Below the pieces are notes generated by a model. That model did not search any database. It saw only the letters and a list, made by a program, of their open reading frames with translations, and was not told the DNA's origin. Below, piece by piece: positions 7,733 to 29,166 of a stretch of 29,166 nt of DNA. The translations under genes were made by a program, and so were the position numbers. The stretch is from a virus. Taxonomy: Duplodnaviria > Caudoviricetes. The stretch spans positions 1-29,166 of the IMG/VR virus record IMGVR_UViG_3300008255_000373; one strand, written 5' to 3'. Position 1 is the stretch's first letter, and the number at the start of each line of letters is the position of its first letter.

Positions 7733-7737
7733 TCGTA

Positions 7738-8242: not shown

Positions 8243-8257
8243 TCGGTCGTTCCTCTC

Positions 8258-8279: not shown

Positions 8280-8310
8280 ATGAGCAACGACCTACCTGGA
8301 GGACTCCTCG

Positions 8311-9404: not shown

Positions 9405-9640
9405 TGAACCTTGATGCGCTGATCGTCAACGCGACGGACCTTGCCGCTATCGAGGTTGTGAACGGGTCGCAGTCCAATCGACGGCTCGCACCCGTTCTTT
9501 CCGCCGATGGTCGGAAGGTTCTTTCCGCCGATCTCCTTACCGATTGCGGCGAGCAACAGACCTGGAAGGATTATCGTGAGATATTGACGAGGCTTCCCCG
9601 CGAGACGGTAGCCATGCCTGAGCCACAGGGGAGTCCATGA
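9404..9640 (+). CDS. Hypothetical protein (78 aa), possible fibre chaperone
   Basis: TGATG coupling at 9402-9406 with a GGAGG SD; ATGA overlap with the next gene. Confidence 0.6.
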   Translation: MNLDALIVNATDLAAIEVVNGSQSNRRLAPVLSADGRKVLSADLLTDCGEQQTWKDYREILTRLPRETVAMPEPQGSP

Positions 9641-10050
9641 GCCTTATCCGTGCCATCACCCGTCCCTACGGTCCCGCGACGGTGGACATCCAGATCGAGC
9701 AAGGCTCCGACTTCGTGATGAAGTTCACTCTGTCGAAGAACGCGGTGCCTTGGGATCTCACCAACGCGACGTTCCGCGCTCACTTCCAGTTGAGCGTACC
9801 GACCGCTCAGTGCATCCCTCTTCCGGTGACTCCTCTTGACCTCTTGAACGGGGAGGTCCAAGTGGAGTTCCCTGCCGCATCGTCGCTTGGTCCTCCGTTC
9901 GACACGCTCCCGCCGCTCGCGGAGGCTCGCCCGATTCGCCCCGATCAGTACCCTCTTGGCGGATGGCTCTTCGAGATTACTGACGCCAGCACGACAACGC
10001 GCATCGCCGAGGGTGCGTGCTTCCTGGATCGCGACCCATGCCTGATGTAA
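9637..10050 (+). CDS. Virion structural protein, BppU/LtfC-like beta-sandwich adaptor
   Basis: IQIEQGSDF...WDLTNATFRAHF...GEVQVEF...WLFEITD....RIAEG pattern typical of fibre-attachment domains. Confidence 0.6.
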   Translation: MSLIRAITRPYGPATVDIQIEQGSDFVMKFTLSKNAVPWDLTNATFRAHFQLSVPTAQCIPLPVTPLDLLNGEVQVEFPAASSLGPPFDTLPPLAEARPIRPDQYPLGGWLFEITDASTTTRIAEGACFLDRDPCLM

Positions 10051-10445
10051 GCGTCGAGATCACGCCACAGCCGAGTATCGTCGCAACGGTCGTTGGGGGC
10101 GATCAGATCAGTATTGATCTTTCTGCCGGTCCTCCGGGTCCAAGCGGAGCGACGGTCATATCCGGTACGCTCGCCGCGCTTTCGACAGAAATGGATTCGC
10201 TTGCCTCGGACTTCGCCAACTGGAACGTCCAGCTTTGGAACGGGGCTATGCGCTACACCGCCGACATCAACGCGAGTTCGGACGGCGTGACGGCGAACTG
10301 GTCGCAGTCCGGTGTGTCGCTTGTCGGGATTACCGTTCCGACTTTCACTCTCGACGTTCAGCGTGTCGGCGCTGACCTCGTCCTCTCGGGGATCGGGGTT
10401 GGCTGGTCCTTCCGCGTTCGCCGTTATCTCCAGGTGACATCATGA
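10038..10445 (+). CDS. Hypothetical virion protein with a short GPPGPSG collagen-like motif
   Basis: In-frame ATG at 10038 overlaps the previous stop region. Beta-rich N-terminus followed by AGPPGPSG. Confidence 0.55.
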   Translation: MPDVSVEITPQPSIVATVVGGDQISIDLSAGPPGPSGATVISGTLAALSTEMDSLASDFANWNVQLWNGAMRYTADINASSDGVTANWSQSGVSLVGITVPTFTLDVQRVGADLVLSGIGVGWSFRVRRYLQVTS

Positions 10446-10786
10446 AGTATCAAGACACCATCGGTGCCGTTGTTCTTCTGCGGAAGATCCTTCCGACAGA
10501 TGGCTGGTACAAGTCGGAGCCTCGCAAGGGAAGGATCCTCATCACTGCGATGGATGCGCTTGATGCGCTTCCGCCTTGCGACCTGGAGCGCGGAACCGAC
10601 GAGCAAGATTCCGATTGGGAGAAAAGGCGCGATGCGTTCTGGTCGCAGGAAGCATCCTGGGAGTGGAGCGAGACGCAGGAAGATGCCGTGCGCCTGTGCG
10701 TCAAGTTCTACCGGGACGCTGCCGCCTTCGCCCCAACGCCAGCCGTCCGTTCTCTTCTCAAACTCCTTCAACTGGACAAGGATTGA
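10442..10786 (+). CDS. Hypothetical protein
   Basis: ATGA overlap with the upstream gene; fills the operon without a gap. Confidence 0.6.
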   Translation: MKYQDTIGAVVLLRKILPTDGWYKSEPRKGRILITAMDALDALPPCDLERGTDEQDSDWEKRRDAFWSQEASWEWSETQEDAVRLCVKFYRDAAAFAPTPAVRSLLKLLQLDKD

Positions 10787-10788
10787 CC

Positions 10789-11154
10789 ATGACTGACGCC
10801 ATCATCCAGGTTGATCCCAAGACCACGACCCGCAAGGAAGTGCGAGCCGTCCAGATCGTCGGGCTCAACGATCTTGATGCCGATCCTTCTCGCCCGGATC
10901 TCAAGTATGGGTTCCTCATCCATCGGGTCGCGGAGCCGCAGAACGATAGCGGCGAACAGACCGGAGCGAGGATCGCCCTTCCTCCATTCCAGGTGCCTAT
11001 GCTCGACGTACTGACGCGGACCTTCACGCGACCGGACGGCTCGACGTTCTCAGGGGCGCAGCATCTCATGGACCACAACGCGGTCGTGGATCACTACAAG
11101 GCTATGGCTGAGATCCCCTCGCCCGAACCCGCCGCTGATCCGGAGACGCCATGA
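10789..11154 (+). CDS. Hypothetical protein
   Basis: AAGGA SD before ATG 10789 (the track's 10576 start overlaps the previous gene). ATGA overlap downstream. Confidence 0.6.
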   Translation: MTDAIIQVDPKTTTRKEVRAVQIVGLNDLDADPSRPDLKYGFLIHRVAEPQNDSGEQTGARIALPPFQVPMLDVLTRTFTRPDGSTFSGAQHLMDHNAVVDHYKAMAEIPSPEPAADPETP

Positions 11155-12179
11155 GCGAACAGAGTGACCTTGCGGTGCTTGGCCTGCGCCTGGGCGTCCT
11201 CGGGTCGCTCGCTTCGCTGGCGCTCGCCGCTCCGTTAGCTGATGGCGATCTGAGCGACGAGGCGCGGACGGACGCGGCTCGCATAGGGTTCTACTTCCGT
11301 CGCAACGCTGGCTTGGAGTGCATGCGCCATGTAGTGATGGGACGAGATATTCTTTGTGTCGGCGTCAAGGGAATCTCGTCATGGGTCAACTCGGTCGGCA
11401 AGGAGGTCGGTGACGCGAATGAGGTTTGGGGCTTTGATGCTGGTAATACCAACTTCACTGGAACCGGAAATACGTTCTTCGGACAATACTGCGCGAAGGG
11501 CAAGAGCGGAGGCGGAGGAGCCAACACCGCGTTCGGGCATCGTGCTATGGAGATTGGTTCCGGAGGATCGCTCAACGATGCCTTCGGAACGCAGGCGCTC
11601 AGGAACGTCACCAACAATCACAATAAGGCATTTGGATACCATGCGCTCCGCGAATGTACGAGCGGTGAGGGCAACGTCGGTATCGGTTCCTGGGCGTTTG
11701 AAATCCTGACGAGCGGTTCGCGCAACGTTGGTATCGGTCGGCGCGTGGCGGTCCTTCTCGCCAGCGGCTCAGACAACACCTATCTCGGAGCCTTCGCCGC
11801 TCCGAACGCAACGACCGGAAGTCACAACTGCGGACTTGGGGCGAACACACTCCCGAACATAACGACTGGCCGTGGTAATATCGGACTTGGTCGGTATGCT
11901 GGAAACGGTCGCGGCAACTCGGACAACAAACTCTATGTCGGCACGACCGCGACCGGAGGCGGAGCCTACGCAATCAACGCGGTTCGGATCGAGTCAACCG
12001 ACGTTCGCGGACCCTTGTGGGAGACTCCCAACCGCTTCGCCGCCGCGACCGCGACTTCCGCTGGCGTCAATCTCGGAGTTGGCGTTGACCCGCTTTCTCC
12101 GCAGGACGGCGACATATGGGTGACTGCTAGTTCCATCTTCGCCCGCGTTGGCGGGGTCACATACGATCTCTTGGCCTGA
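11151..12179 (+). CDS. Fibre/adhesin-like protein with N-x-x-[FIL]-G repeats (beta-roll, YadA-head-like)
   Basis: About 10 repeats with a 16-18 aa period (NTFFG, NTAFG, NDAFG, NKAFG, NVGIG x2, NTYLG, NCGLG, NIGLG). C-terminal P.SPQDGDIWVT..SIFARVGG motif common in phage fibres. Confidence 0.7.
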   Translation: MSEQSDLAVLGLRLGVLGSLASLALAAPLADGDLSDEARTDAARIGFYFRRNAGLECMRHVVMGRDILCVGVKGISSWVNSVGKEVGDANEVWGFDAGNTNFTGTGNTFFGQYCAKGKSGGGGANTAFGHRAMEIGSGGSLNDAFGTQALRNVTNNHNKAFGYHALRECTSGEGNVGIGSWAFEILTSGSRNVGIGRRVAVLLASGSDNTYLGAFAAPNATTGSHNCGLGANTLPNITTGRGNIGLGRYAGNGRGNSDNKLYVGTTATGGGAYAINAVRIESTDVRGPLWETPNRFAAATATSAGVNLGVGVDPLSPQDGDIWVTASSIFARVGGVTYDLLA

Positions 12180-12185
12180 GGACTT

Positions 12186-12467
12186 ATGGAAACTATCATC
12201 GTTCACGAAGACACGACCATCGAGCGGACCTTTGCCGAGGAGACGCGGGTTGTTGCTCGAAGTGATCCGCCCGAGAGCGGACCTTGGAACGCAACCATGT
12301 CGTTCGCCGCGACCTTCGTGGGGCCTATCGACCCGGAGAACCCCGTTGCCCCGATCAGCGCAAGCGGGGTCGAGGTCGAGACGCTCCTCAAGGTCGGTAC
12401 GTGGTCCATCACGCTCACTCCGACCGCCACGCCCTTCGATGGGCGCATACTCCTGGGTGACGCATGA
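12186..12467 (+). CDS. Hypothetical protein
   Basis: GAGGA SD; ATGA overlap with the connector gene. Confidence 0.55.
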   Translation: METIIVHEDTTIERTFAEETRVVARSDPPESGPWNATMSFAATFVGPIDPENPVAPISASGVEVETLLKVGTWSITLTPTATPFDGRILLGDA

Positions 12468-13189
12468 ACCCCTATCGCAGCGGTGCTCCTCTCTCCGGTT
12501 GGACGGTCCCTCGTCCTATCTCGAAGCGTCTCAAGGAGACGTCCGCTCCAGCCGTCCTCCCGGTCACGCTCGACGAACTCAAGGCGCATCTTCGCGTCAC
12601 GAACTCGGATGAGGACGCCTACCTGACGACCATCCTCGGGGCGGCGGTGACGATGGCGGAGAACTACCTCAGCAGAGGGCTCATCAACCGGAACGTCCGG
12701 ATGTATATGGACTATCTTCCGGGGTTCGGTCGGGACTTCTGGGCCTGGGGTTCGGGAGCCATGCAGCTGCCCGTAGCCTACGCCACTGAGAGCGTCTTCC
12801 GGATGTTCGACCTGATGCGCGTCCCGGTCGCCGCCGTCTCCCAGGTCGTGTTCGTAGCGGAGGATGACTCTGAGGAAGTCTTCGCCCCCACAAGCTACAT
12901 CGCGGACGTCGATGACCCCGACCAGCCCGCTCGGATCATCCTCCGTCGCGGAGCCGTCTGGCCTGTGAACATCCGGGTCGCCAAGTCGATCTACTGCGAC
13001 TACACCGTGGGCTACGGAACGACCGCCGCGAGCGTTCCTCTTCCGCTTCGTCAGGGCGTCCTCCTGATCGCCGCTGCACTCTGGTCGAACCGGGGCGACA
13101 ACTCCGATCCACAGCCCGACATCCTTCAACTCCCCGCCGTCAAGGCGACCCTCGAACCGTACCGTGTTATGAGGTTCAGTACGCTATGA
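12464..13189 (+). CDS. Head-tail connector/adaptor (phiE125 gp8 / HK97 gp6-like)
   Basis: PVTLDELKAHLRV...EDAYLTTILGAA...AENYL; YTVGYG...VPLPLRQGVLLIAA.LW.NRG; LEPYR. Confidence 0.9.
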   Translation: MNPYRSGAPLSGWTVPRPISKRLKETSAPAVLPVTLDELKAHLRVTNSDEDAYLTTILGAAVTMAENYLSRGLINRNVRMYMDYLPGFGRDFWAWGSGAMQLPVAYATESVFRMFDLMRVPVAAVSQVVFVAEDDSEEVFAPTSYIADVDDPDQPARIILRRGAVWPVNIRVAKSIYCDYTVGYGTTAASVPLPLRQGVLLIAAALWSNRGDNSDPQPDILQLPAVKATLEPYRVMRFSTL

Positions 13190-13539
13190 GACGGAAGATG
13201 GACGATTACACGGCTGGCGAACTCCGCGAGAGGGTTCAGGTCCAGCGTGTTCGTTATACTCCGGACGGTGCTGGCGGACAACTCAAGACGTGGGTGGACC
13301 ACGTTGTCCTCTTCGCGTTCGTCGAGGAGAAGTCCGCCCGAGAGAACTACGCGGACTCCTCGCTTGGTCGAATCCGGACCGAGAAGCACTGGGAGTTCAC
13401 GACCTGGAAGCGCGGAGACATAACGGTACAGGATCGGCTCGTCTGGGCGGATCGGCTCTGGGACATACGGTCCGTTGAGAACCTTCTGGCTCGCAACAAG
13501 TTCATCCGCATCATCGCGGAAGCCGGGGTGGAGCAATGA
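13186..13539 (+). CDS. Head closure protein (SPP1 gp16-like)
   Basis: GELRERVQVQ...DGAGG...W, DITVQDRLVW.DRLWDIRSV; expected syntenic position. Confidence 0.88.
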   Translation: MRRKMDDYTAGELRERVQVQRVRYTPDGAGGQLKTWVDHVVLFAFVEEKSARENYADSSLGRIRTEKHWEFTTWKRGDITVQDRLVWADRLWDIRSVENLLARNKFIRIIAEAGVEQ

Positions 13540-13988
13540 TCTCTATCGTCAAGGGCGTCCCGCAGCTACTCGCGACCTTCAACAAGCTCCAGGCGGAGTC
13601 GGGGCGGCGGATCGCCCGCGCCACGAACCGCGCAGCCCGCGTCCTTCAGCGCGATGCTATTCGCCGCGTCAAGAACCCTCCGAAGTCGGGGAAGCGTCGA
13701 GGCAACCACACCGCGTCCGCTCCCGGGGAGTCGCCCGCGAGCGACTCGGGCAAACTCGTCGAGAACATCATCGTGGTCGCCGCGAAGCCCGGACCCGTCG
13801 CGGTCGCGGAGGTTCGAGCCCGTACCAAGTACGCGAAGGCGTTGGAGTTCGGAACGCGGAAGGCGGGACGGTCGCGCAATGTCGTGATCGAGCCTCGTCC
13901 GTTCCTTGGGCCAGCCATCGCAGCGACCGCGAAGGAGATGAACAAGATTTTCAAGGAAGAGATGAACGGACGCGGAGGTGATAAGTGA
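13536..13988 (+). CDS. HK97 gp10-family neck/tail completion protein
   Basis: ASAPGESPASDSGKL, YAKALEFGT, PRPFLGPA. Confidence 0.88.
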   Translation: MISIVKGVPQLLATFNKLQAESGRRIARATNRAARVLQRDAIRRVKNPPKSGKRRGNHTASAPGESPASDSGKLVENIIVVAAKPGPVAVAEVRARTKYAKALEFGTRKAGRSRNVVIEPRPFLGPAIAATAKEMNKIFKEEMNGRGGDK

Positions 13989-14392
13989 CTGCCATACCCT
14001 CCCAAGCCGAACTCCTCGGGCTCATCAACGACCGTCTCACGGGCGATGCTCCGCTCATGGCGTTGGTCGGCAACCGGATCTTCAATCACGTCCCACAAGA
14101 CGCCCCGCTTCCAATCCTCCGCTTCCGACTCTCCCAGGCGAACGAATGGGACACGAAGGACTCGGCTGGATGGGAAGGCTACGTGGACATCGACATCTGG
14201 AGCGATCATCGCGGCGACTTGAAGCCGTTGGAGGTCGCGGATCGGGTCGATTCAATCTTCCACGTCCTCCCATTTACGATGAGCAGCGGGCAGTCGCTCC
14301 TTCTCCGTCACGAGTTTTCCGATAGCTTTACGGAGCCAGACGGACTCACCCACCACACGGTACTTCGCTTCAGAAGTATCATCACCAACTGA
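13985..14392 (+). CDS. Tail terminator (DUF3168 / gp17-like)
   Basis: LMALVGNRIFNHVPQDAPLP, IDIWS, DGLTHHTVLRFR; directly upstream of the tail tube gene. Confidence 0.88.
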   Translation: MTAIPSQAELLGLINDRLTGDAPLMALVGNRIFNHVPQDAPLPILRFRLSQANEWDTKDSAGWEGYVDIDIWSDHRGDLKPLEVADRVDSIFHVLPFTMSSGQSLLLRHEFSDSFTEPDGLTHHTVLRFRSIITN

Positions 14393-14411
14393 ACCCTCGG
14401 AGGTTATCACC

Positions 14412-14822
14412 ATGGCCAAGTTCTGCGGAAAGGATCTCCTGATCCAGCGGTTGACGGCACCCGCTACTTACACAACCGTCGCATCGATGCGATCCACCTC
14501 GCTCTCGATCAACAACGAGCAGGTGGACGTGACCGACAAGGATGACGCCCCGTGGCGCCAACTCCTCGAAGGCTGCGGCGTGCGCTCGATGGAGCTCAGC
14601 GCGGCGGGTATCTTCACCTATGCCGCCATCATGGAGACGATCATCGCGGACGTTCTCGCGGGCAATGTCGTCGAGTTCAAGGTCATCTCCGGGGCGGGCG
14701 ACACCTTCGTGGGGCTCTTCCTCGTCGCCTCGTGCGAGCGGTCTGGCGAGTACAACCAGGCCGAACAGTACACGCTCAGCCTCGCCTCCGCTGGCGAGGT
14801 GACGTACACCCCGGCTCCGTGA
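14412..14822 (+). CDS. Major tail (tube) protein, TP901-1/GTA family
   Basis: GKDLLI, MRSTSLSINNEQVDVTDKD..WRQLLEGCGVRSMELSAAGIF, YTLSLASAG; GGAGG SD. Confidence 0.93.
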   Translation: MAKFCGKDLLIQRLTAPATYTTVASMRSTSLSINNEQVDVTDKDDAPWRQLLEGCGVRSMELSAAGIFTYAAIMETIIADVLAGNVVEFKVISGAGDTFVGLFLVASCERSGEYNQAEQYTLSLASAGEVTYTPAP

Positions 14823-14842
14823 TTGCGTAAGGAGGACCAATC

Positions 14843-15220
14843 ATGGCTAACAAACATCGCGGGGAGATCGAGCTCACCCTAGGTGGACGGACGTTCTTGC
14901 TCCGTCCTACCTTCGAGGCTCTCGTGGAGTTCGAGGACAAGAGCGGCATGACTGCCTTTGAGGCTCTCAAGTCGCTTCTGGAGAGCCAGCGAGCCCCGGC
15001 CAAGGCGGTCGCTGCCGCCTTCTGGGCTGGGATCCGGGCGGCTTGGAAGTCGGAGGACGGGCGTTGCCCCTCCTTCGGGGAGATCGGCTTGCTCATCCAG
15101 AAGGACGGGCTCAAGTCGGTGATCGAGAACTACAGCAAGTTCCTGACCTTCTCGATCTCCTCCGACGAGGAGGTTGAGAAGATGAGGGAGGTGAGCGAGG
15201 GAAAAGAGGGGAGCGGCTGA
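14843..15220 (+). CDS. Tail assembly chaperone (gpG equivalent, GTA gp10-like)
   Basis: MANKHRGEIELTLGG....LRPTFEALVEFE signature; TAAGGAGG SD; lies between the tail tube and tape measure genes. Confidence 0.88.
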   Translation: MANKHRGEIELTLGGRTFLLRPTFEALVEFEDKSGMTAFEALKSLLESQRAPAKAVAAAFWAGIRAAWKSEDGRCPSFGEIGLLIQKDGLKSVIENYSKFLTFSISSDEEVEKMREVSEGKEGSG

Positions 15221-15435
15221 ACGATGAACCGGGAACGGACCTATGCGATTGGCAACGCCTCGTGGCCATCCTCGTGGTCCGCTTCCATCAATCGTCGGAT
15301 GCCGCTTGGCGCTTCACCCTCCGCGAGTTCTTCGCGCTCATCGAGGCTAACAACCCGAAGGAGCGTGCGAGCGTCAAGTGGGACTACGAGAAGCAAGGCG
15401 ACTTCATCGCTCACCTTCGTAGCATCGGAGCCTAA
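15199..15435 (+). CDS. -1 frameshift extension of the tail chaperone (gpGT equivalent; full product 14843-15435)
   Basis: In-frame slippery heptamer G GGA AAA at 15199-15205. The -1 frame reads GKRGERLNDEPGTDLCDWQRLVAILVVRFHQSSDAAWRFTLREFFALIEANNPKERASVKWDYEKQGDFIAHLRSIGA* (TAA 15433-15435) with the W-x-x-T-x-x-E chaperone motif. Not in the ORF track. Confidence 0.85.
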   Translation, partial: GKRGERLNDEPGTDLCDWQRLVAILVVRFHQSSDAAWRFTLREFFALIEANNPKERASVKWDYEKQGDFIAHLRSIGA

Positions 15436-15439
15436 CCTA

Positions 15440-17695
15440 ATGGCCACGACTCTCGACACCCTAACGGTACCAATCACGGGCTCGGTCGCGGGGCTCCAGA
15501 CCGCGTTCGCACAGGCGGGGAAGCTCACCCAGAACTTCGCCGCTGGCGTAGGGACGAAGCTCAACGCGGCACGGAACGGAGTCAACGCACTAGGTGGAGC
15601 GTTCCTCAAGCTCGCCGCCCCGGTCGCCGCTGCTGCGTCCGCGTTCATGTCGGTGAAGACGGTTCTGGACTCGATCAATCGGGCGGACGGGCTCGCCAAG
15701 ACGTCCTCCGAACTCGGCGTCACGGTCCAGGCTCTCCAGAAGCTCCACGTTGCCGCTTCGATGAACGCGAGCAACGCGGAGGATATGAACAACGCTCTCC
15801 GTATGATGACCCGAGTTCTCGGTGAAGCCTACGAGGAAGGGAGCGAGGCGGAGAAGGCTTTGAAGGAGTTGGGCTTCACGCTCAGCGACTTCGCGGGCTT
15901 GAGCAGCGACCAGGCTATGATGAAGTTCGCGGACGCTCTCAACAGCATCGAGGAGTCGGGCAAGCGGGCGGATCTGGCCAACCAGATCTTCGGACGCGGG
16001 GCGAAGAACATCGCTGGCGTCATCGCGGCGGGAAGCGCGGGCATACGCGAGATGGGCGACGAGGCGGAGAAGACGGGGAAGGTTCTGAGCAAGATGGAGT
16101 TTGGAAAGCTCCTCGCCGCCAATGACGCCCTCGACAAGCTCGGTGCCGCGCTCCAAGCCCTCGGAGATCGGCTCGCGGTCGCGTTCGGTCCGGTCATCGA
16201 CTGGCTTGGGACGGCGATCAACGATTGGATCGGAGACGTCCGTGGCGCGGACGAGACGTTCAACGGCTTCGCTCGCGGAGTCGTCAAGGCAATCGGCGTG
16301 ATCCGCCTCGCCTGGGACGGACTTCAGCTCATGTGGGCGGCGGGGAAGGTCGCGGTCGGAGCCCTCGCGGTCGGCGTCAACGAGTTCGCCAACGCGGCGG
16401 TCAAAGCCTTCAAGTGGGTGAGCGATCTCGCGGGGAAGACGTGGGACTTCATATCCGCGTCCTTCAAGGTGAACGCGGACGCTATAGCGGTCGGCTGGGA
16501 GTGGGTCAAGAGCAAGGCGGTGATCGCCTTCGCGACGATTGGAGAAGCCTTCGCCAAGACGATCATCGCCATGGGCCAGACCGCTCGCGAGAGCGGCATC
16601 AAGGGGCTCTCGGACATTGGTTGGCAGGCGGAGGTCGCTGGTGCTGATCTCCTCGTCGGGGCGATGAAGCTACGCCAGGGGGCGGAGGCTGGCGTCAAGG
16701 CGGCGAAGGACGATCTGGATCAGAGCGTCCAGAACCTCGAAGCGGCGAAGGAGGCTTTCAGCAAGCCCGCCGATCTCACCACCGGACTCGAAGGGGCGGT
16801 TGAGCGGTCCCATCAGTTCTTCCAAGAGGTCAAGTCCGAGTTCAAGGATCTCGCGCAGTCGATGGCCGACCAGGAGGGCGGCAACGCCTACGATAACACG
16901 CTCATCAGCTTCGACCGCAGCTTGGAGAAGTCAACCGCCAAGGCTATCGAACTCGGAGAGCAGTACGCCCAGAGCCGGGAGACGGTCGCGAAGAGGCTTG
17001 AGAGTGCGGAGGAACTCGCCAACCAGCGTTCGCTCGACCGTCGCGCAGCGTACTACGAGGAGCTTGCGAAGCGTACCCAGGAGGCGGAGGAGACGCTCAC
17101 GCTTCTTCAGGAGAGCGAGCAAGAGAGGCGCCAAGCCCTCCTCGCGGAGTCGGCGGTTGCGTACGAGGAGCAGAACTTCAAGGAACGCATGCAGTGGGCG
17201 GAGATGTGGCAGAGCGGAATGGAGGGAAAGCTCCAGATTATGTCCGGGCTTCTCTCCGGGTTCGCCTCGCTCATGCAGTCGAAGAACAAGAGCATGTTCC
17301 AAGTCGGCAAAGCGGCGGCGATGGCGGAGACGGTCGTCAACACGTTCCTCTCCGCCCAGCTGGCGTACACCCGCGCCTTGGAGATCCCCGGCATTGGTCT
17401 CGCTCTCGCCCCCATCGCGGCGGCGAGCGCCATCGCGGGCGGGTTGATGCGCCTCCAGCAGATCTCCTCGACACAGTTCGGTTCCTCGACCGCCCCGGGA
17501 GCAGGCGGAGGCGGGGCGACTCCGGGCATGAGCGGTGCCGCGTCCGCGAAGGAGTCCGCCGCCGCGTCCTCGCAGTCGAACGTCAACGTCACCCTCTATG
17601 GCTCGACCTTCTCCGGTGAGCAGGTTCGCGGGCTCATCGCGGCGATCAACGATCAGACCGGGGACAACATGAGCCTGAAAGCGCAGGTGGGATAA
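15440..17695 (+). CDS. Tape measure protein (751 aa)
   Basis: Long Ala/Gly-rich helical ORF after the chaperones. True start is ATG 15440 (MATTLDTLTVPITG); the track's 72-aa N-terminal extension is the off-frame reading of gpT. Confidence 0.92.
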   Translation: MATTLDTLTVPITGSVAGLQTAFAQAGKLTQNFAAGVGTKLNAARNGVNALGGAFLKLAAPVAAAASAFMSVKTVLDSINRADGLAKTSSELGVTVQALQKLHVAASMNASNAEDMNNALRMMTRVLGEAYEEGSEAEKALKELGFTLSDFAGLSSDQAMMKFADALNSIEESGKRADLANQIFGRGAKNIAGVIAAGSAGIREMGDEAEKTGKVLSKMEFGKLLAANDALDKLGAALQALGDRLAVAFGPVIDWLGTAINDWIGDVRGADETFNGFARGVVKAIGVIRLAWDGLQLMWAAGKVAVGALAVGVNEFANAAVKAFKWVSDLAGKTWDFISASFKVNADAIAVGWEWVKSKAVIAFATIGEAFAKTIIAMGQTARESGIKGLSDIGWQAEVAGADLLVGAMKLRQGAEAGVKAAKDDLDQSVQNLEAAKEAFSKPADLTTGLEGAVERSHQFFQEVKSEFKDLAQSMADQEGGNAYDNTLISFDRSLEKSTAKAIELGEQYAQSRETVAKRLESAEELANQRSLDRRAAYYEELAKRTQEAEETLTLLQESEQERRQALLAESAVAYEEQNFKERMQWAEMWQSGMEGKLQIMSGLLSGFASLMQSKNKSMFQVGKAAAMAETVVNTFLSAQLAYTRALEIPGIGLALAPIAAASAIAGGLMRLQQISSTQFGSSTAPGAGGGGATPGMSGAASAKESAAASSQSNVNVTLYGSTFSGEQVRGLIAAINDQTGDNMSLKAQVG

Positions 17696-18471
17696 TGGCC
17701 CAGATGGTCCTCCCCCAAGTCCTCTACGATTCCGCGCTCCACCGTTTCAAGGCGAGCCTTTCCTATGATGGGACCCTCGTGGAAGGCTTCGACCCGGAGA
17801 ACGCGGTTGACTGGCGGGACTTCTCGTTGTTCCGGGCGGATACGGGAACGACCCATCTCAAGGTTCAGACCACCGCCGCGATCAACCTGGATTCGTTCGT
17901 CTTCTGGCTCACGGCTCTCCCCGCGTCCGTCACCCTCTACGTCGAGACGAGCCCCGACGATGCGGTGTGGACCACGCGGGCGACCGTCGCGGTGACCTCC
18001 CTCCTCCAGTGGGCTGACTTCACCTCTGTCGCGGTCGCGAGCGGAGACTACATCCGCGTGCGGATCGCGAACGGGAGCGGCGGAGCAATCGACTTCCGCC
18101 AGATCAGCGTAGGTCTCAAGCTCCAGTTCCCGGTCGGACAGTGGAACGGCATCGCCCCTCCGACCCTCTACAGCGGCGTGGTCGTAGAGAACGTCACCGC
18201 CGTGAACGGGTCGATCATCGGGCGGAACGTCCGCCGCCTTGAGAAGTCGGGGAAGCTCGACATCAACCTACTCGATCCAACCTGGATCCGGACGTACTAC
18301 GACCCCTTCCAGCGTCACGCGGGTCGGTTCGCGTTCTGGTACCGTTGGCACCCCGTAGGCTATCCGACTGAGGTGGCCTTCGCCGCCGCGAACGACATCG
18401 TGGCTCCGACCAACGACCGCCCAGGCCCCAAGATGAAGATCGAGATGCCGATGAGGTTGCTGACCGCATGA
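17695..18471 (+). CDS. Distal tail-like / tail tip protein
   Basis: TAATG-coupled to the tape measure gene; beta-rich, possibly with a discoidin-like N-terminal half. Assigned by position. Confidence 0.6.
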   Translation: MAQMVLPQVLYDSALHRFKASLSYDGTLVEGFDPENAVDWRDFSLFRADTGTTHLKVQTTAAINLDSFVFWLTALPASVTLYVETSPDDAVWTTRATVAVTSLLQWADFTSVAVASGDYIRVRIANGSGGAIDFRQISVGLKLQFPVGQWNGIAPPTLYSGVVVENVTAVNGSIIGRNVRRLEKSGKLDINLLDPTWIRTYYDPFQRHAGRFAFWYRWHPVGYPTEVAFAAANDIVAPTNDRPGPKMKIEMPMRLLTA

Positions 18472-20327
18472 CCTACGAAGCGCAAGCCCAGGAGAGCGGG
18501 AAGACGGCGGTTCAGATCGTCGAGCTTTACATGTCGCGTTGCTCGCGCTCCTACGGGGTTGCGCCGTGCACCGCCGCTATCGGCGTGACGGGAACGGATC
18601 GTTGCTTCAACACGACCGCGACGTGCCAGGACCGCCCCAACCTCGACCTCGCACCATACGTCTATCGGTTCGCCTCGCAGCGGGTAGAAGGGCTCCAAGC
18701 TCCCGGTGACCCGCCGATCTTTCCCACGCTCCTCTCGGTCAAGACGGCTCCGACGATCCTCACGCCCGGGAAGGGCTTGGGCGTCCGCGCTTCCCTCTCC
18801 GTGACGATTCAGGATCACCCGTGGACGGACGTAGGCTGCGACCCCTATCGGACGCTGCGAAGCTACGACCCGGACGGAAGAGGAACCTTCTGGGGGAAGT
18901 GGCTCAACCGCAACCGCTTCTACGAGAACCGTCGCATTGACGTCCTCACGGGGTTCATGAACGATGATGGGACCTATGACGCGGCAAACTTCAATCGGCG
19001 GTCCTACATCATTACCAAGATCAGCGGTCCGAGTTCGACTGGACAGGTCAGCATCGAGGCGAAGGATCCGCTGAAGCTCGCGGACGGGGAGAAGGCGAAG
19101 TGGCCACGCGCCTCGCTCGCGAGCCTGACGGCGAACATCAACGAACTCGTCACGAGCGTTGCTATCACCGACCCGAACCTTGATCTCACGGAGTGGTGGA
19201 ACGCGGGCCAACGCTACCTCCGCTGCGAAGAGGAGATCATGCTGGCCACGGGAGCTTCGGGGATCGGGACGAGCAGCGTGACGCTTACCGTGACCCGGGG
19301 TTCGATGCCCTCCTGGTACGACTTCTCGCAGAACGTCGCGGAGGCGCACGACCTGGAGGCGAGCGTTCAGCCGTGCTGGCTCTTCGATGACGAGATGGTC
19401 TATGATATTGTGTACTTCCTTCTCAACTACGTCGCTGGGATCGACTCATCAAATCTCCCGCTGGCCGAGTGGATCACCGAGATCGACAACGGGTTCCAGT
19501 ACCTCTCCTTCAGTACGCTTCTCACGGAGCCCGTCGAGGTCAAGAAGCTCCTTGAAGAGATCAGCCAGTTGTCGGTGATGATGTTCTGGCACGAACGGGA
19601 CCAGGAGGTCAAGCTCAAGGGGCTTCGCTTCCAGCAGCTGATCGGACCGCAGATCAACGATGACCAGTCCATCGTCGCGGAGTCGGTCGGCGTGAGCGAG
19701 GATTCCGCCGCGCTCATTACCCAGTCGTGGATCTACTACGACATGACGTGGCCGCTCGCGATCATGAGCGAGCTTCGCTCCTATCGCAACGTGGACATCC
19801 GGGCGAACCTCGACCGCGAGACGGTCGAGGAGTACCAACGCCCCGCCATTCGCCAGACGATGTCCCGCTGGCTCAACCGCTCGCAGACAGGCGTGGCGGT
19901 TGAGATCGGCACTACGATCCTCCGCCAGTACCAGGACGTGCGCAAGATCATTTCGTTTGCGATGGACCCGAAGGATGACGCCTATTGGGTCGGTGATACG
20001 GTCGGCATCGCGACGAAGTACATCCAAGACGAGAGCGGAGCGCCAGCGGCGAAGAACTATCTCATCACGCAGGTCGAGGAGGTAATTGGAGACAACGGGT
20101 TGCTCCTCCGCTACGTCGCCACGGAGTTGTTCGCCTTCGTCCGGACGGGCTTGATCACGCATCCTTCGGATCCGGGCGGTCCGGTCGATCCGGTCCCCGC
20201 GCCTCCGGACTATTCGCTGGCTTCCGCGACCGAGAAGAACAAGTGGGCTTTCGCCTGCTACAACGTACCTCCCGAACCCAATGGACCTTTGTTCCTCGAC
20301 GGAACACGGGCGTACCAGATCGTGTAA
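18468..20327 (+). CDS. Tail tip hub / central tail protein with N-terminal four-Cys cluster
   Basis: 619 aa, second gene after the tape measure gene. C-x8-C-x11-C-x6-C, GLGVRA, GTFWGKW..RN, IEAKDPLKLAD motifs. Confidence 0.7.
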   Translation: MTYEAQAQESGKTAVQIVELYMSRCSRSYGVAPCTAAIGVTGTDRCFNTTATCQDRPNLDLAPYVYRFASQRVEGLQAPGDPPIFPTLLSVKTAPTILTPGKGLGVRASLSVTIQDHPWTDVGCDPYRTLRSYDPDGRGTFWGKWLNRNRFYENRRIDVLTGFMNDDGTYDAANFNRRSYIITKISGPSSTGQVSIEAKDPLKLADGEKAKWPRASLASLTANINELVTSVAITDPNLDLTEWWNAGQRYLRCEEEIMLATGASGIGTSSVTLTVTRGSMPSWYDFSQNVAEAHDLEASVQPCWLFDDEMVYDIVYFLLNYVAGIDSSNLPLAEWITEIDNGFQYLSFSTLLTEPVEVKKLLEEISQLSVMMFWHERDQEVKLKGLRFQQLIGPQINDDQSIVAESVGVSEDSAALITQSWIYYDMTWPLAIMSELRSYRNVDIRANLDRETVEEYQRPAIRQTMSRWLNRSQTGVAVEIGTTILRQYQDVRKIISFAMDPKDDAYWVGDTVGIATKYIQDESGAPAAKNYLITQVEEVIGDNGLLLRYVATELFAFVRTGLITHPSDPGGPVDPVPAPPDYSLASATEKNKWAFACYNVPPEPNGPLFLDGTRAYQIV

Positions 20328-24782: not shown

Positions 24783-24814
24783 ACCATACGCCCCCGCCCG
24801 ACTTAGTAAAGAAC
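24783..24814 (-). promoter_or_regulatory. Sigma70-like promoter, copy 1 (GTTCTTTAC-N15-CG-TATGGT)
   Basis: -35-like TTTACT and -10-like TATGGT upstream of the 24760 gene. Same motif and spacing as 26776-26807. Confidence 0.65.
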
Positions 24815-24853: not shown

Positions 24854-25273
24854 TTATGACGTCGAGCCCTTCGAGGCGCAGCCCGCCTCCACGTCCTTCG
24901 CGAGCGTCCCGGGGCAGCGGTTCGTCGCGATCAACTCCGCCTCGACCAAGAGGAGGTAGCGGCGGAGGTCGCGGATGTCGTCGATGACGCCTTCCGCCCG
25001 CTGGTCCGTCTCGACCGCTCCGAAGATGTCGAAGCGGTCAAACGCGGGAACCTTCTCAACGTCGCAATCGAGAGGGTGCGCGGTGTTCGGATTCTCCAAC
25101 GGAGGATTCGCCACGCGCTTCTCAAGGCGGTCCCACTTCCTCGCGAGCATCATGAAGGCTCCGATCCCTCCGCGCTTCTTCCACGAGTCTCCATAGGACT
25201 TCTCAGCGTGGCGAAGCGCGGTGACGTCGCTCGCCGCCACGCGGTCGAGTTCGTTGAGGTAGAGGTTGCTCAT
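24854..25273 (-). CDS. Nucleotide-modification-associated domain 1 (Nmad1/DUF1599, MazG-like all-alpha NTP pyrophosphatase fold)
   Basis: ATG 25273 (ATGA overlap, AAGGAG SD). KSYGDSWKKRGG...LARKWDRLE...EGVIDDIRDLRRYLLL. Confidence 0.7.
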   Translation of the reverse strand: MSNLYLNELDRVAASDVTALRHAEKSYGDSWKKRGGIGAFMMLARKWDRLEKRVANPPLENPNTAHPLDCDVEKVPAFDRFDIFGAVETDQRAEGVIDDIRDLRRYLLLVEAELIATNRCPGTLAKDVEAGCASKGSTS

Positions 25274-25785
25274 GAGGGTTCTCCTTCGTAGAGGTTTGAC
25301 CAGGCATTCTCGACTTCCGCGATGGCGGCGGAGAGTCGTGGCGTGTTGAACTCGGCTTGCGCCTTCTCCATCCAGGCGGTCCCGTTCTCGTACCACTCCT
25401 CAGCGTAGCGGTTCCCCATCTTCCGCTGCTCGACGGAGTACCAGACGAGTTCGAGCATGTCCGCGAACTTCAGCAGCCAGCGTTCCTCTCGCGAGAGGTT
25501 CGCCGCCTCGATCCCAAGCCCTCGCTCGATCTGGAGCTCAAGCTCATCGAGCGTAGCCTTGAGCGACTTCGACATCCACTTGGCCGTCGCGGGGATGTCG
25601 CCCGTATCGTACTCTGCCACGTCATGGTAGATCGCAGCGCGGAGGAGATTGACGGACGGGTCGCAGATCTCGAAGAGGAGCGCGGCGACTCCCCACGAGT
25701 GCGCGGCGACGGTCTGATGGTCTATGGTCGGACGGGTATGGAAGCGACGGACTCCACCGCCGAGTCGGATGCGTTCGTGATTCAC
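25270..25785 (-). CDS. HD-domain deoxynucleotide phosphohydrolase (YfbR-like)
   Basis: VRRFH....QTVAAHSW, AAIYHDVAE..TGDIP...K, LKFADMLE. Confidence 0.88.
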   Translation of the reverse strand: MNHERIRLGGGVRRFHTRPTIDHQTVAAHSWGVAALLFEICDPSVNLLRAAIYHDVAEYDTGDIPATAKWMSKSLKATLDELELQIERGLGIEAANLSREERWLLKFADMLELVWYSVEQRKMGNRYAEEWYENGTAWMEKAQAEFNTPRLSAAIAEVENAWSNLYEGEPS

Positions 25786-26753
25786 TTCCCCGCCCTCCGC
25801 TCAATCCACTCTTGGCATGCGACCTTCCACGCCTCGTCTCCGATGGCGTTGACCCATTCAAAGTAGATACCCTTGCGGAATACGAAGGCGTTGTGGACGG
25901 GGATTGCCACGCGACGTATGAACCGGGACTTCCATTCTCCGATCTCCAACGGTACATACTGACCCGCGCAGAGACAGAACCGTTGAACCTCCTCGTCCCA
26001 CTCTTCCCTCGGAAGGTCGAGGAGACGCGGAGCCGAACGGGCGAGCGGGTAGCGGTCGCAGGGTTCGGTCACGAAGAACAACCGCTGACTCTTCGCGTGA
26101 TTGCGATAGACGTGGAGGTTGTTGCTGATCTGCTCGTACCAACCAACCTCGACCCCGACCGCCTCCGCGACGTATTGCTGGAAGTACGACATGTGGACGG
26201 GGTTCGCTCCCGCGACCGCCCCGAGGACCGCGTCATTGGAGCGGTTGAAGACGGTGAGGTTGAGGGCTCCTCGGTCGATGGCGAAGACGAGGGAGAGGTT
26301 GCACGCCTTGTCCTTTGTGATCTTCCCGAGGTCGGCGGAGTCCCAGAGCGCGATGACGGCTTGGCGGCTCGTCGGGTTCTCCTTCAGTTCGCGGACTACC
26401 TCGGACAGCTGGTCCTTTCCGAAGTGATGACGCATACGGAATCCGTAGGCAGCGTTGTACCTCTTCCCATCATCGGAGAAGGACGCCATGGCCGAGTTGT
26501 AGAAGGTCGGGAACGCGACATCCTCCCGTCCCGCGAGCATCCAGAGCGACTCCATCAGATGGAAGAACGGGTTGGCGTCCCGAACGGGGCAGAAGCAGAC
26601 CCGCTCCAGCGGTCGCTCGTAGTGAAGCGCCACGGGCTCGGGGAAGCGGAGGACCGGACCGTTGCGGCTCAAGTCCTCGACTCCTCGCTTGTCAATCTCC
26701 GCCATCACGCGGCGGAGCATCTTGTTGACGTTGCGTTCTCGAATCTCGATCAT
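25782..26753 (-). CDS. Thymidylate synthase-fold enzyme, probable dUMP hydroxymethylase
   Basis: ATG 26753 with AAGGAG SD. SRNG, RDANPFFHLMESLWMLAG, FSDDG, AAYG.R, DQL, SRQAV, KDKACN (catalytic Cys), NRSND..LG..GAN (Asn at the uracil-specificity position), NLHVY. Confidence 0.85.
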   Translation of the reverse strand: MIEIRERNVNKMLRRVMAEIDKRGVEDLSRNGPVLRFPEPVALHYERPLERVCFCPVRDANPFFHLMESLWMLAGREDVAFPTFYNSAMASFSDDGKRYNAAYGFRMRHHFGKDQLSEVVRELKENPTSRQAVIALWDSADLGKITKDKACNLSLVFAIDRGALNLTVFNRSNDAVLGAVAGANPVHMSYFQQYVAEAVGVEVGWYEQISNNLHVYRNHAKSQRLFFVTEPCDRYPLARSAPRLLDLPREEWDEEVQRFCLCAGQYVPLEIGEWKSRFIRRVAIPVHNAFVFRKGIYFEWVNAIGDEAWKVACQEWIERRAGK

Positions 26754-26775
26754 GGTCGGTGTTCTCCTTCGGGGA

Positions 26776-26807
26776 ATCTTACGGGGAGGGGCGGACAGGT
26801 AAAGAAC
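26776..26807 (-). promoter_or_regulatory. Sigma70-like promoter, copy 2 (GTTCTTTAC-N15-CG-TAAGAT)
   Basis: Fills the gap upstream of the TS-like gene; same motif and spacing as 24783-24814. Confidence 0.65.
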
Positions 26808-27676
26808 TAGGGGAGTGGGGTTGCGTCCGGACGGTAGAGGCTCCGGGGTTCTCCCTGTCCCTCGATCACGCGACGGTACTTGTCCCACTCGCAGAAACAG
26901 TTCGAGAGGTTGTTCAAGTCCGCGAAGGTATCGACGAAGCGGGCTGTGCAACGGTTCACCGCCGCCCGGATCTGCTTGAGCGCCAGCGTGGACTCCTCGA
27001 CCTTCCACGAAGCCTTGAGGTCACGGAGGCAGAGACGATTCAACCCGCGCTTCGTTCCCGGTCCCGCGAGGACGAACGTGGCCCAATCGTCCGTCTCGCC
27101 AACCGGGAGATCCTTGGTGTACTTCATATCCGTGATGATCTGGTTCCTCATGAAGTCGCCCATCCCGAAGATCGACCCCAGGAAGACGTCCCACTGTCCG
27201 CAGTTCCGAACTCGCGGACGGTCCTTCCACTTCGCCGCCAGCGGGTCGAAGACTCGCTTGATGAGGTAGTCCTCCTTGTTGAGCTTCGCGTCCTCGCCCG
27301 TTCCGGCACGGATCATGTAGGCTCCGGTGTACACCTTCTCGCCGCGCTCCGTCCGCGAGCGCATAGCCTTCCGGAACTGATCGGGCTTCCAACGCTTCAT
27401 GTATCCGATCTCCGCGAGGGTATCTGGCCAGTTCACAAAGCGGGCGACCGCGAGGTTGAAGGCGAGGAACTCGTGGCCGTTGTTCGGCTTGATGATGTTC
27501 GCGAAGATCCAACGCGTCACGCGGTCATCGCAACGGTCCACATTACAGAACCGATACTTGAGCAACACCGGATCCTTCGTCCAGGGCGGTCGGAGTCCGC
27601 GCTGACGAGCCAGGCGGACGTCCTCGCGCTCCTTGATGAAGTAAAGGAAGTTGTCGAACATCTGGGCGTTGAACAT
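26807..27676 (-). CDS. DNA base hypermodification protein, aGPT-Pplase clade 1 / 5-hmdU DNA kinase helical-domain family
   Basis: YFIKERE.VRL.R......PWTKDPVL.KYRFCNV.R.DDRVT.WI, RFVNWP, YTGAYMI, GMGDFM..QI..D, GPGTKRGL, CEWDKY.R. No P-loop in this ORF. Confidence 0.85.
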   Translation of the reverse strand: MFNAQMFDNFLYFIKEREDVRLARQRGLRPPWTKDPVLLKYRFCNVDRCDDRVTRWIFANIIKPNNGHEFLAFNLAVARFVNWPDTLAEIGYMKRWKPDQFRKAMRSRTERGEKVYTGAYMIRAGTGEDAKLNKEDYLIKRVFDPLAAKWKDRPRVRNCGQWDVFLGSIFGMGDFMRNQIITDMKYTKDLPVGETDDWATFVLAGPGTKRGLNRLCLRDLKASWKVEESTLALKQIRAAVNRCTARFVDTFADLNNLSNCFCEWDKYRRVIEGQGEPRSLYRPDATPLP

Positions 27677-27679
27677 TGG

Positions 27680-28258
27680 TCACTCCTTGACGATGAGTTC
27701 GATGTTGGCAGCGAGCTTCTCGGGCGGATTGAAGTAGAAGAACTTGGCTTGGTCCTTGAAGAGTTTGACGTGACGGTACTTCGTTGCGCGCGGTCGAAGG
27801 TAGCTGGCCACCGTCTTCCCTTCGAGCTTCGCGTGCGTCTCGTCCGCGTTCTTCATAACGGAGGCATATGGTTGGTCGAGGTAGTAGAGGAGCGGGAAGG
27901 GGAGACCAAGCATGACGTCCTCGACTACCGACCGGAGCATGCGGTGCTCTGGATGATAGATCCCGAGAGGGGCGATGATCTTGGCCTCCGATCCGAACGG
28001 CGCAAACGTCGAGGCGAGAACCCTAGTCAACGACTTCCGGTCCTTCTCGGGCTTCTCGCGGTCCTCGGAGAAGGGGAAGCCGATCCAGAGGGCATCGACC
28101 GCCTTGGCGTAGGCTTTGGCGTCCTCCGCCCGCTTCCGTGTCTTCGAGAAGACGGTGATGATGGACACCGGGACGTTCGAGGCTCGCCACTTCTCGATGT
28201 GTCCGCCGAGGGAGAGGAACGCGTCATCAGCGTGCGGTTCGAGGATGATGAAGCTCAT
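27680..28258 (-). CDS. PIG-L/LmbE-family de-N-acetylase
   Basis: IILEPHADDAFLSLGG (H-x-D-D metal motif), R.AED, IIAPLGIYHPEH (HPDH-like), YYLDQPY. ATGA-coupled to the upstream glycosyltransferase. Confidence 0.82.
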   Translation of the reverse strand: MSFIILEPHADDAFLSLGGHIEKWRASNVPVSIITVFSKTRKRAEDAKAYAKAVDALWIGFPFSEDREKPEKDRKSLTRVLASTFAPFGSEAKIIAPLGIYHPEHRMLRSVVEDVMLGLPFPLLYYLDQPYASVMKNADETHAKLEGKTVASYLRPRATKYRHVKLFKDQAKFFYFNPPEKLAANIELIVKE

Positions 28259-29166
28259 GACTTCCTCCCGTAGATGAACAGATCATAGACCTTCGAGGGA
28301 TCGGCTTGCGACTTGACCCAAGCCTTCGCCCGTCGCCAACGCTCCGGGTCGAGGGCGAACCGTTGCGCCTCCTTCGAGGCGATGAGCTTCGGCAGTTCCT
28401 TCTCGGACTCGACGAACAGCGCGATGTCCTTCGGGACCGCCTTGGCGGCCTGGGAGTGAAGAATGGGGCAGCACCCGTACCACAACGCCTCCTTCGTAGT
28501 GTTGTTGTACGTCCCTTCCTTGTAGGCGGTGAACTTACTTCGCGTCAGTCCCATCAGGTCGATAGTGAACCAACCTCGGGCGAAGACTTCGGAGATGGCG
28601 TCCAGCGAGACGTTCCCGAAGAACTCCGCCCGACCGTATCCGTTGAAGCCCTTGAAGTGATCCGTCTTGACGGCTCGTCGCCACGCCTCCGTCGAGCGAA
28701 GTTGATAGTACAGGATCCCGTTTGAGTACATCTCGAAGTCTCCCGGGATCTCGGGGATGAGCGGAAGGATCTTGTGGATCCCCTTGATCGCCTTCCATTG
28801 CGACGCCCAGACGGTGAGGAGCTTCTTCGACCGCGCCTCCATCGTCTTCCTCGGCCAGAACGGGCTCGTTGAGTAGGAATGAGGAATGTCGAACTTGTCG
28901 AGATGTGCGAGGACGGGCTTGTGTACGCACGTCACGTAGTCGAGGAGCGGGACGGCGAGCCTCGCCCAGTGCTCGTACTCCTCCCAATAGGCGTCAGTGA
29001 GTCGCCCCACCATTGGAATGAGGATCGACCGGAGGAAGGGGAGCCAGAGCGGTTCCGACCCGTAAGCCTTCGTTGGATGTGGGACGAGATAGACGATGTA
29101 CACTCGGTCGTAGTTCTCGTTGATGAACTTCGCGGACGCGGAGAAGTTCGAGGGGTGGTGTGGCGC
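28255..29166 (-). CDS. Putative GT-B fold glycosyltransferase; 5'-truncated by the window edge
   Basis: The frame stays open beyond the track's 29103 start to 29166 (APHHPSNFSASAKFINENYDRVYIV...). WASQWKAIKGIHKIL, EFFGNV and KEGTYNNTTKEALWYGCCPIL resemble GT-B nucleotide-sugar-binding motifs. Confidence 0.62.
   Translation of the reverse strand, partial: APHHPSNFSASAKFINENYDRVYIVYLVPHPTKAYGSEPLWLPFLRSILIPMVGRLTDAYWEEYEHWARLAVPLLDYVTCVHKPVLAHLDKFDIPHSYSTSPFWPRKTMEARSKKLLTVWASQWKAIKGIHKILPLIPEIPGDFEMYSNGILYYQLRSTEAWRRAVKTDHFKGFNGYGRAEFFGNVSLDAISEVFARGWFTIDLMGLTRSKFTAYKEGTYNNTTKEALWYGCCPILHSQAAKAVPKDIALFVESEKELPKLIASKEAQRFALDPERWRRAKAWVKSQADPSKVYDLFIYGRKS

Follow-up and report, generated by a model that had tools for sequence, protein, structure and literature searches.

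A glycosyltransferase and PIG-L deacetylase pair linked to 5-hydroxymethyldeoxyuridine genes in phages: a predicted amino-sugar branch of thymidine hypermodification

The six-gene cluster and the predicted acceptor pathway

The virus record IMGVR_UViG_3300008255_000373 (Caudoviricetes), analysed here over its entire 29,166 bases and called the window below, is a siphophage fragment that carries six cluster genes at its right end, all on the minus strand. In order of transcription, these open reading frames (ORFs) encode a GT-B glycosyltransferase (GT; 28255..29166, its 5' end cut by the contig end), a predicted metal-dependent de-N-acetylase of the PIG-L/LmbE family (27680..28258), an aGPT-Pplase1 protein (26807..27676), a protein with the thymidylate synthase (TS) fold (25782..26753), an HD-domain 5'-deoxynucleotidase-like protein (25270..25785) and a small helical protein (24854..25273). 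An initial annotation of this DNA had described six tightly packed, co-oriented genes with an ATGA overlap between the first two, and both observations hold: the GC content at third codon positions is 0.79-0.86 in the claimed frame of each ORF, and the GT and PIG-L genes do overlap by ATGA. The following junctions are a 3-nt gap before the aGPT-Pplase1 gene, a 53-nt gap before the TS gene, a GTGA overlap between TS and HD and an ATGA overlap between HD and the last ORF, giving three 4-base overlaps in total. Unrelated contigs repeat this gene order, with protein identities of 35-58%, and therefore the cluster is not a product of chance. Pfam names four of the six ORFs (PIG-L, HMUDK_hel, thymidylate synthase and YfbR-like HD) and gave no match for the GT or the last ORF.

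The TS-fold protein (Thymidylat_synt, E 5.8e-22) is 43% identical to gp58 of phage M6 with 99% coverage. According to PMC13326640, N177 in such enzymes goes with dUMP as substrate, an acidic residue at L143 with hydroxymethylation, and D169N with hydroxylation. Residues D148, C151, D174 and N184 of the window enzyme occupy the diagnostic positions L143D, C146, D169 and N177, and they are invariant across 13 TS sequences including M6 gp58. Because these residues are present, and given the identity to M6 gp58, we predict that the enzyme is a dUMP hydroxymethylase making 5-hydroxymethyl-dUMP (5hmdUMP), which agrees with the initial assignment of a TS-fold enzyme to a 5-hydroxymethyldeoxyuridine (5hmdU, or hmdU) pathway. 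A dCMP-specific or 5-hydroxylating TS was ruled out, since the equivalents of N177 and D169 are both kept.

The aGPT-Pplase1 protein matches the Pfam family HMUDK_hel (PF18723, E 4.8e-43), to which M6 gp55 also belongs, and it is a homolog of gp55. The double label of the initial annotation, aGPT-Pplase1/HMUDK-helical, therefore stands; however, the protein was rejected as a 5hmdU kinase, because in M6 that role belongs to gp54, with gp51 acting as transferase. Lee et al. (PMC8989533) report that gp54 and gp51 suffice for the first transfer step and that gp55 is dispensable. Kept here without a kinase or transferase, aGPT-Pplase1 likely handles the hmdU fraction that stays unglycosylated.

The HD hydrolase is a YfbR-like HD protein (PF12917, E 6.1e-11), as initially proposed, and is the counterpart of M6 gp59 in both family and position. 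It likely removes dTMP or dTTP from the pool, the substrate being assigned by analogy. The last ORF had been called Nmad1-like, and no direct Pfam match to Nmad1/DUF1599 (PF07659) was obtained for it. What remains of that label is a transitive link: the ORF is a homolog of SP10 gp189 (pairwise E 2e-7), which likewise follows a TS gene and itself approaches PF07659 at E 0.02, below the cut-off, and in an ESM Atlas neighbour cluster 11% of the members carry PF07659. The protein may thus be Nmad1-like, an assignment that we regard as weakly supported.

The glycosyltransferase and its deacetylase partner

The window GT has 303 amino acids, while its 38 homologs mostly have 365-409, and consequently about 70 N-terminal residues must be missing. 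Neither Pfam nor PHROGs recognised it. An AlphaFold2 model (predicted local distance difference test score, pLDDT, 91.8) was compared with solved structures: Foldseek placed BshA first (E 1.1e-9) with T4 AGT at E 1.7e-8, and VIA gave a tie of PimA, PimB', AGT and BshA at Z 18-19, with T4 BGT at 13.1. The best VIA match (Z 19.0, root-mean-square deviation 3.2 over 267 residues) shows that two Rossmann domains match solved GT-B folds. Judged by its model, the protein is a GT-B enzyme, assigned to the GT4-like, retaining group, in line with its initial description as GT-B-like.

An exhaustive search for GT relatives found 200 clusters at E 0.001 or better, and from these a widened profile of 84 family sequences was built. 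With this profile, T4 AGT was the best PDB match (E 3.9e-11, positions 13-365), followed by tll1590 (5e-10, C-terminal half only) and BshA (2.4e-6), and HHalign against AGT gave 97.5% over 340 columns. The AGT score rose with profile depth from 1.5 to 15.6 and then to 36.1 bits, while four control GTs stayed below 9 bits, and none of the 84 members is close to AGT itself. At the level of profiles, the margin of AGT over small-molecule GT4 enzymes is modest. The AGT residues D115, K209, T308 and E311 correspond to D58, K128, T223 and E226 of the window GT. In contrast, the position of AGT E306, which we take to be involved in sugar binding, is an Asn in all 39 rows of a narrow alignment and in 71 of the 84 rows of the wide one, a change that would be compatible with a different sugar. 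GT-B enzymes have an N-terminal Gly-Gly loop, a phosphate-binding Lys and a C-terminal Glu; in the wide alignment these are conserved as G15/G16 (79/84 and 82/84), K (82/84) and E (82/84), with the Gly-Gly loop falling in the part absent from the window GT. The Pfam model of AGT (PF11440) did not match the window GT, five close homologs or 41 distant homologs. By profile comparison, then, the GT is a distant relative of the known DNA glycosyltransferase T4 AGT, about 12% identical to it, and not a member of PF11440. AGT glycosylates a 5-hydroxymethylpyrimidine in DNA, and from homology together with genome context we predict the same kind of acceptor for sugar transfer by the window GT. A tree of 26 GT rows (three near-duplicates and six partial GTs omitted) places the window GT with locus L001; the branches are long and we claim no history of transfer from it.

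The second gene was expected to encode a PIG-L-like deacetylase and this was borne out. The match to PF02585 (E 5.8e-6) scores 27.3 bits, just below the 28.2 cut-off, which some homologs exceed. All 22 PIG-L sequences compared share the metal-motif residues H9, D11, D12 and H105, and the HxDD motif and downstream His line up with PHLDD and HPDH of Dbv21. The structure model (pLDDT 93.8) has the LmbE fold; Foldseek matched it to Orf2*/Dbv21 (E 7.8e-10, TM-score 0.72-0.78), and the teicoplanin and A40926 N-acetylglucosamine (GlcNAc) deacetylases ranked first, followed by BshB-type enzymes, Dac and MshB. LmbE enzymes mostly deacetylate GlcNAc glycosides, and by analogy the window PIG-L is predicted to hydrolyse an N-acetyl sugar. 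The family comprises at least 140 clusters, with a median isoelectric point of 7.1 (range 5.7-9.7) and no consistent DNA-binding signal. Two distant cellular relatives were also seen, one (33%) in a polysaccharide-type cluster (L085) and another standing alone (L083).

Distribution of the pair among phages

Scans anchored on the GT gave 27 loci besides the window, which became 24 after removal of near-duplicates, 22 of them with sequence past the GT. PIG-L comes after the GT in 21 of these 22 informative loci, which were found by searching with the GT, and lies within 300 bp in 20; a TS and/or aGPT-Pplase1 gene shares the locus in 15 of the 24. Among the remaining nine, four are shorter than 3.4 kb, two come from records with such genes elsewhere (G006 and G007), and L016, L027 and the short L029 show none. 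Both GT and PIG-L are present in twelve virus records, five of which came from searches with PIG-L. A hydroxymethylase-type TS is encoded by ten, in nine of which the diagnostic residues were read, and aGPT-Pplase1 by 11. One record without a visible TS, G006, is 74% complete. The other, G010, is a 51% fragment that also has no aGPT-Pplase1 and carries instead a Tet/JBP dioxygenase (E 5e-20), which could be another source of the same hydroxymethyl acceptor, so that 11 of the 12 records encode a maker of 5-hydroxymethylpyrimidine. Fragment G010 is of T4 type and has, besides the pair and the dioxygenase, a dATP/dGTP diphosphohydrolase (L096:6216-7565, L072:15-599); possibly it carries a second modified base too.

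The enzymes that lead to amine adducts are, in contrast, rare. The amino-acid:DNA transferase (ADDT, PF18724) was found in none of 13 related records, by a search that was positive for M6, a Kuttervirus and RHph_I72, and the 5hmdU kinase family (5-HMUDK, PF18748) in one of 12 (G009); L027 and L017 were searched over part of the record. Neither kinase nor ADDT was found in the window, which is however cut inside the GT. The four records that are at least 90% complete (G005, G007, G011 and G012) all fit a GT acting together with the deacetylase on hmdU. The complete T4-type myophage G007 has a TS 42% identical to the PhiW-14 dUMP hydroxymethyltransferase, and no kinase or ADDT was found among its 140 scanned genes. 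The Pfam TS model missed this hydroxymethylase, which our own profile found, and absences based on family models are consequently soft.

Two backbones carry the pair: Pol A phages with an M6-like gene order, and T4-type myophages. The pair lies upstream of aGPT-Pplase1 and TS, in the slot that gp51-54 hold in M6. From these gene arrangements it appears that GT and PIG-L replace the amine pathway of M6 and ViI in both kinds of phage. A tblastn search of 50,697 phage records with three GT family members and PIG-L gave no match.

Several loci have further genes beside the pair. In G008, an APS (adenosine 5'-phosphosulfate) kinase gene and a weakly sulfotransferase-like gene lie between aGPT-Pplase1 and TS (L003:2031-3022), and sulfation of the sugar or of its amine is therefore suggested. 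Methyltransferase genes adjoin the GT or PIG-L in G009 (L080:7391-7996) and G011 (L093:4826-5617), where sugar methylation is possible. The T4-type myophages G006 and G007 have a second GT4-type gene directly after PIG-L (L008:11615-12823 and L009:11581-12816). Locus L084 (4872-9928) strings together genes for ParB, GT, PIG-L, a radical SAM enzyme and terminase; none of its 12 kb encodes a TS, and its acceptor may come by another route. Two cultured phages, Ralstonia phage RSL1 (L114:327-8063) and Microbacterium phage Morrigan (L112:4277-7869), have aGPT-Pplase1, TS and TAGT-type GTs; neither gave an ADDT match, and RSL1 also encodes a sulfotransferase and an APS kinase. By their gene content, both are candidates for sugar-modified hydroxymethyluracil (hmU).

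Elsewhere in the window, Pfam and PHROGs matches identified an HK97-type head and siphophage tail module on the plus strand (1418-20327), including terminase (1887-3248), portal, protease, capsid, tail tube and tape measure genes. A promoter-like motif (TTCTTTAC, 17 bases, TA) has two matches on the minus strand, one (26780-26806) within the 53 nt that separate the TS gene from aGPT-Pplase1 and one (24787-24813) that precedes the gene following the cluster. The pattern was derived from these same two sites, so any chance estimate for it is too favourable, and a consensus promoter scan of the window did not call them. If functional, the two copies would divide the six genes into a GT-PIG-L-aGPT-Pplase1 unit and a TS-HD-Nmad1 unit. 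A minus-strand ORF at 22708-23160 matches phrog_624 (E 8e-13) and is presumably similar to pyrimidine-dimer-glycosylase-like phage proteins; a PF03013 gene lies directly upstream of the cluster in G011.

A predicted hexosaminyl mark and its alternatives

Taken together, these analyses suggest a pathway in which the phage DNA is likely built with 5-hydroxymethyl-dU replacing T. The AGT-like GT would then move an N-acetylhexosamine (HexNAc), probably GlcNAc from host UDP-GlcNAc, onto the 5-hydroxymethyl group, and PIG-L would strip the acetyl group to leave a cationic hexosaminyl-oxymethyl-uracil, while cleaning of the nucleotide pool is the likely task of the HD and Nmad1-like proteins. Because the GT is GT-B and AGT-like, an alpha linkage is expected. 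The core of this proposal had been put forward in the initial annotation, and it is supported by the GT-B fold and kinship to a DNA glycosyltransferase, the intact deacetylase motifs, the type of TS and the wide co-occurrence of the pair with hmdU genes. Of the refuting outcomes named in that annotation, none that computation can check was observed. We put alpha-HexNAc transfer onto 5hmdU in DNA followed by de-N-acetylation to hexosaminyl-hmdU (HexN-hmdU) at slightly better than even. Of the two halves of the model, the one with better support is that the GT acts on a DNA hydroxymethylpyrimidine, with hmdU itself the presumed acceptor. The N-acetyl donor is suggested by the coupled deacetylase and by the family-wide change at the position of AGT E306. 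Whether the sugar sits directly on 5hmdU or on an adduct had been left open; direct transfer is favoured and an amine adduct is unlikely, because ADDT is missing from all 13 related records and nearly all relatives lack the kinase. Transfer before deacetylation would be the order of events, and protection from nucleases the presumed purpose. With the formula C16H25N3O10 (419.154 Da), the nucleoside predicted here is exactly isomeric with hexosyl-hmdC, such as glucosyl-hmdC, and intact mass alone would therefore misassign it.

A number of observations weigh against this pathway. In structure searches AGT scores level with mannosyl-, glucosyl- and GlcNAc-transferases, so that the fold fixes neither donor nor acceptor; the narrow 39-sequence GT profile matched no PDB sequence, with HHalign to AGT at just 2.6%; and the LmbE fold takes in enzymes that are not deacetylases, the hydratase GalB appearing at rank 11. 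As the contig stops within the GT, this phage could have a kinase, a transferase or a second GT further upstream; the one sequencing run found to contain the region may be that from which the record itself came. A divergent transferase could also escape the ADDT search, which failed on SP10, and G009 carries a kinase beside the pair. The complete G002 (L002:8749-16141) combines PIG-L with TAGT, a GT-A enzyme, and an epimerase and has no GT of the window family; this genome also encodes aGPT-Pplase1, TS and HD, and its deacetylase may serve a non-homologous GT. TAGT stands alongside the pair in seven loci (L001, L019, L024, L025, L029, L077 and L079, with L025 nearly a duplicate of L024). The pair occurs with no hmdU gene in view in L027 (21 kb), L016 (10 kb) and L084 (12 kb), PIG-L lies 10.5 kb from the GT in G011, and L026 has no PIG-L within 1.5 kb downstream of the GT. 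Finally, no cultured phage with a GT or PIG-L of these families was found at the sensitivity used.

Part of this evidence could mean that the pair acts second, after hmdU has received a sugar or a linker from a GT-A of the TAGT type, a kinase or a divergent transferase, so that HexNAc would be added and deacetylated on an adduct. The presence of TAGT in several loci, including L001 with the GT nearest to that of the window in the tree, the gene content of G002 and G009 and the missing upstream region would all agree with it, as would the deacetylase gene of Carin-5, which is grouped with GTs for the assembly of a glycan that a linker joins to T (PMC12686479). We nevertheless consider it unlikely, since no TAGT, kinase, ADDT or further GT turned up in the complete G005 (where Pfam covered 26 of the 47 called genes in addition to the cluster neighbours), an AGT-like ancestry suggests a base-flipping enzyme that primes, and T-even phages have TAGT as a second enzyme next to their alpha-GT (PMC13216743). 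About equally unlikely, or slightly more so, is a neutral sugar such as glucose on hmdU, an alpha analog of base J, with PIG-L cleaving another amide or doing unrelated chemistry. Glucose is the sugar used by T4 AGT, the closest solved relative, the donor is not fixed by the fold and the LmbE fold includes a hydratase; however, a neutral sugar gives no reason for the translational coupling of a deacetylase to the GT or for its place after the GT in 21 of 22 loci. The loci also have no other recurrent enzyme that would form an N-acyl group, and E306 of AGT is replaced by Asn across the GT family (71/84 rows).

The same product might also arise in another order, with PIG-L converting UDP-GlcNAc to UDP-glucosamine and the GT transferring the free amino sugar to hmdU. 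All the co-occurrence data fit this route, and so does a PIG-L family that is not uniformly basic and has no clear DNA-binding signal. Yet its solved relatives Orf2*/Dbv21, BshB and MshB deacetylate the glycoside after transfer, and we think the reverse order improbable. More improbable still is that the pair has a non-DNA substrate (a host surface glycan, a virion protein or a small molecule as for BshA/BshB) and merely sits among replication genes. Distant PIG-L relatives do occur in the cellular L085 cluster and alone in L083, BshA is the top Foldseek match and some loci have no hmdU gene nearby. On the other hand, the best match of the GT profile is a DNA glycosyltransferase, 11 of 12 records encode a 5-hydroxymethylpyrimidine maker, and the pair occupies the slot of gp51-54 of M6 upstream of aGPT-Pplase1 and TS.

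Direct HexNAc transfer to hmdU followed by deacetylation has its closest parallel in the alpha-glucosyl-5hmC of T4 (gp42 and alpha-GT, PF11440), which also uses a TS-fold hydroxymethylase for the precursor and a homologous GT-B for the 5-hydroxymethyl group in DNA. The acceptor here is instead predicted to be hmU (N177, not D), the GT is only about 12% identical and misses PF11440, and T4 has no deacetylase, its glucose being neutral. The initial annotation had compared the product to kinetoplastid base J. Base J shares the sugar on 5-hydroxymethyluracil in DNA but is made by a dioxygenase and a GT-A as a beta-glucoside (PMC13229309; bioRxiv 2023.12.21.572611), whereas a GT-B, an alpha linkage and an amino sugar are predicted here; only some relatives have TAGT-type GT-A genes, and the analogy to T4 is thus closer. 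With M6 the cluster shares the dUMP hydroxymethylase, aGPT-Pplase1 and the HD protein in M6 gene order. M6/YuA, ViI, PhiW-14 and SP10 use 5-HMUDK and amino-acid:DNA transferase (PMC8989533), while the relatives of the window carry GT and PIG-L.

The addition of N-acetylhexosamine to a 5-hydroxymethylpyrimidine in DNA by phage GTs has a precedent in the TET-linked sugar-5hmC systems, which include HexNAc-hmC (Pyle et al., bioRxiv 10.1101/2023.12.21.572611). There the acceptor is a cytosine modified after replication, and the main text describes no free amino sugar and does not use the term 'deacetyl'. Sugars are also attached to thymidine in SP-15, YerA41 and Carin-5 (PMC12686479, PMC9023294, PMC13697223), although on a long linker (104 Da in Carin-5) and with structures that these reports leave unresolved. 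Carin-5 gene 177 is a predicted GlcNAc deacetylase within a GT block (PMC12686479), annotated however as a polysaccharide deacetylase and not PIG-L, and the YerA41 fragment masses are reported not to fit hexosamine. In DLP3, a PIG-L gene lies in a separate sugar cluster, with its target not established there. A GT followed by an LmbE-fold de-N-acetylase is familiar from BshA/BshB, MshA/MshB and the glycopeptide GlcNAc transferase with Orf2*/Dbv21, which are the top fold matches; those enzymes act on small molecules with no link to DNA, at identities of 12-19%.

The initial annotation knew of no characterised phage base of the amino-sugar type, and likewise a full-text literature search, to which supplements and most subscription papers were not open, so that a prior prediction is possible, found no description of hexosaminyl-hmU, nor of a GT paired with PIG-L for modifying phage DNA. 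By its gene content, the cluster would thus represent a conserved and apparently undescribed branch of thymidine hypermodification, with a predicted chemistry. A wider extension, which we offer tentatively and rather doubt, is that the GT/PIG-L pair is a portable module writing a free amino sugar on 5-hydroxymethylpyrimidines made by either a dUMP hydroxymethylase or a Tet/JBP dioxygenase. The amine would serve as a handle for tailoring, a heparan-like logic of deacetylating and then decorating applied to DNA, and the base, as an isomer of glucosyl-hmdC, would pass unnoticed in intact-mass surveys. With the same reserve, candidate tailoring genes would be the sulfotransferase-like gene and APS kinase of G008, the methyltransferases of G009 and G011, and the second GTs of G006/G007 and of the TAGT loci.

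To our knowledge, the sugar marks known on phage DNA are neutral or acidic, and the cationic marks on thymidine come from amino acids or polyamines. If the prediction is correct, a deacetylated amino sugar would join these two classes of marks through two enzymes for which a nucleotide sugar of the host would suffice, and we know of no other de-N-acetylase shown to act on DNA, so this would be the first. The retention of aGPT-Pplase1 without a kinase or transferase constrains ideas on its role. Such a base would also help to probe the response of modification-dependent nucleases and glycosylases to charge and linkage, and the pair may provide an enzymatic amine handle on 5hmU DNA.

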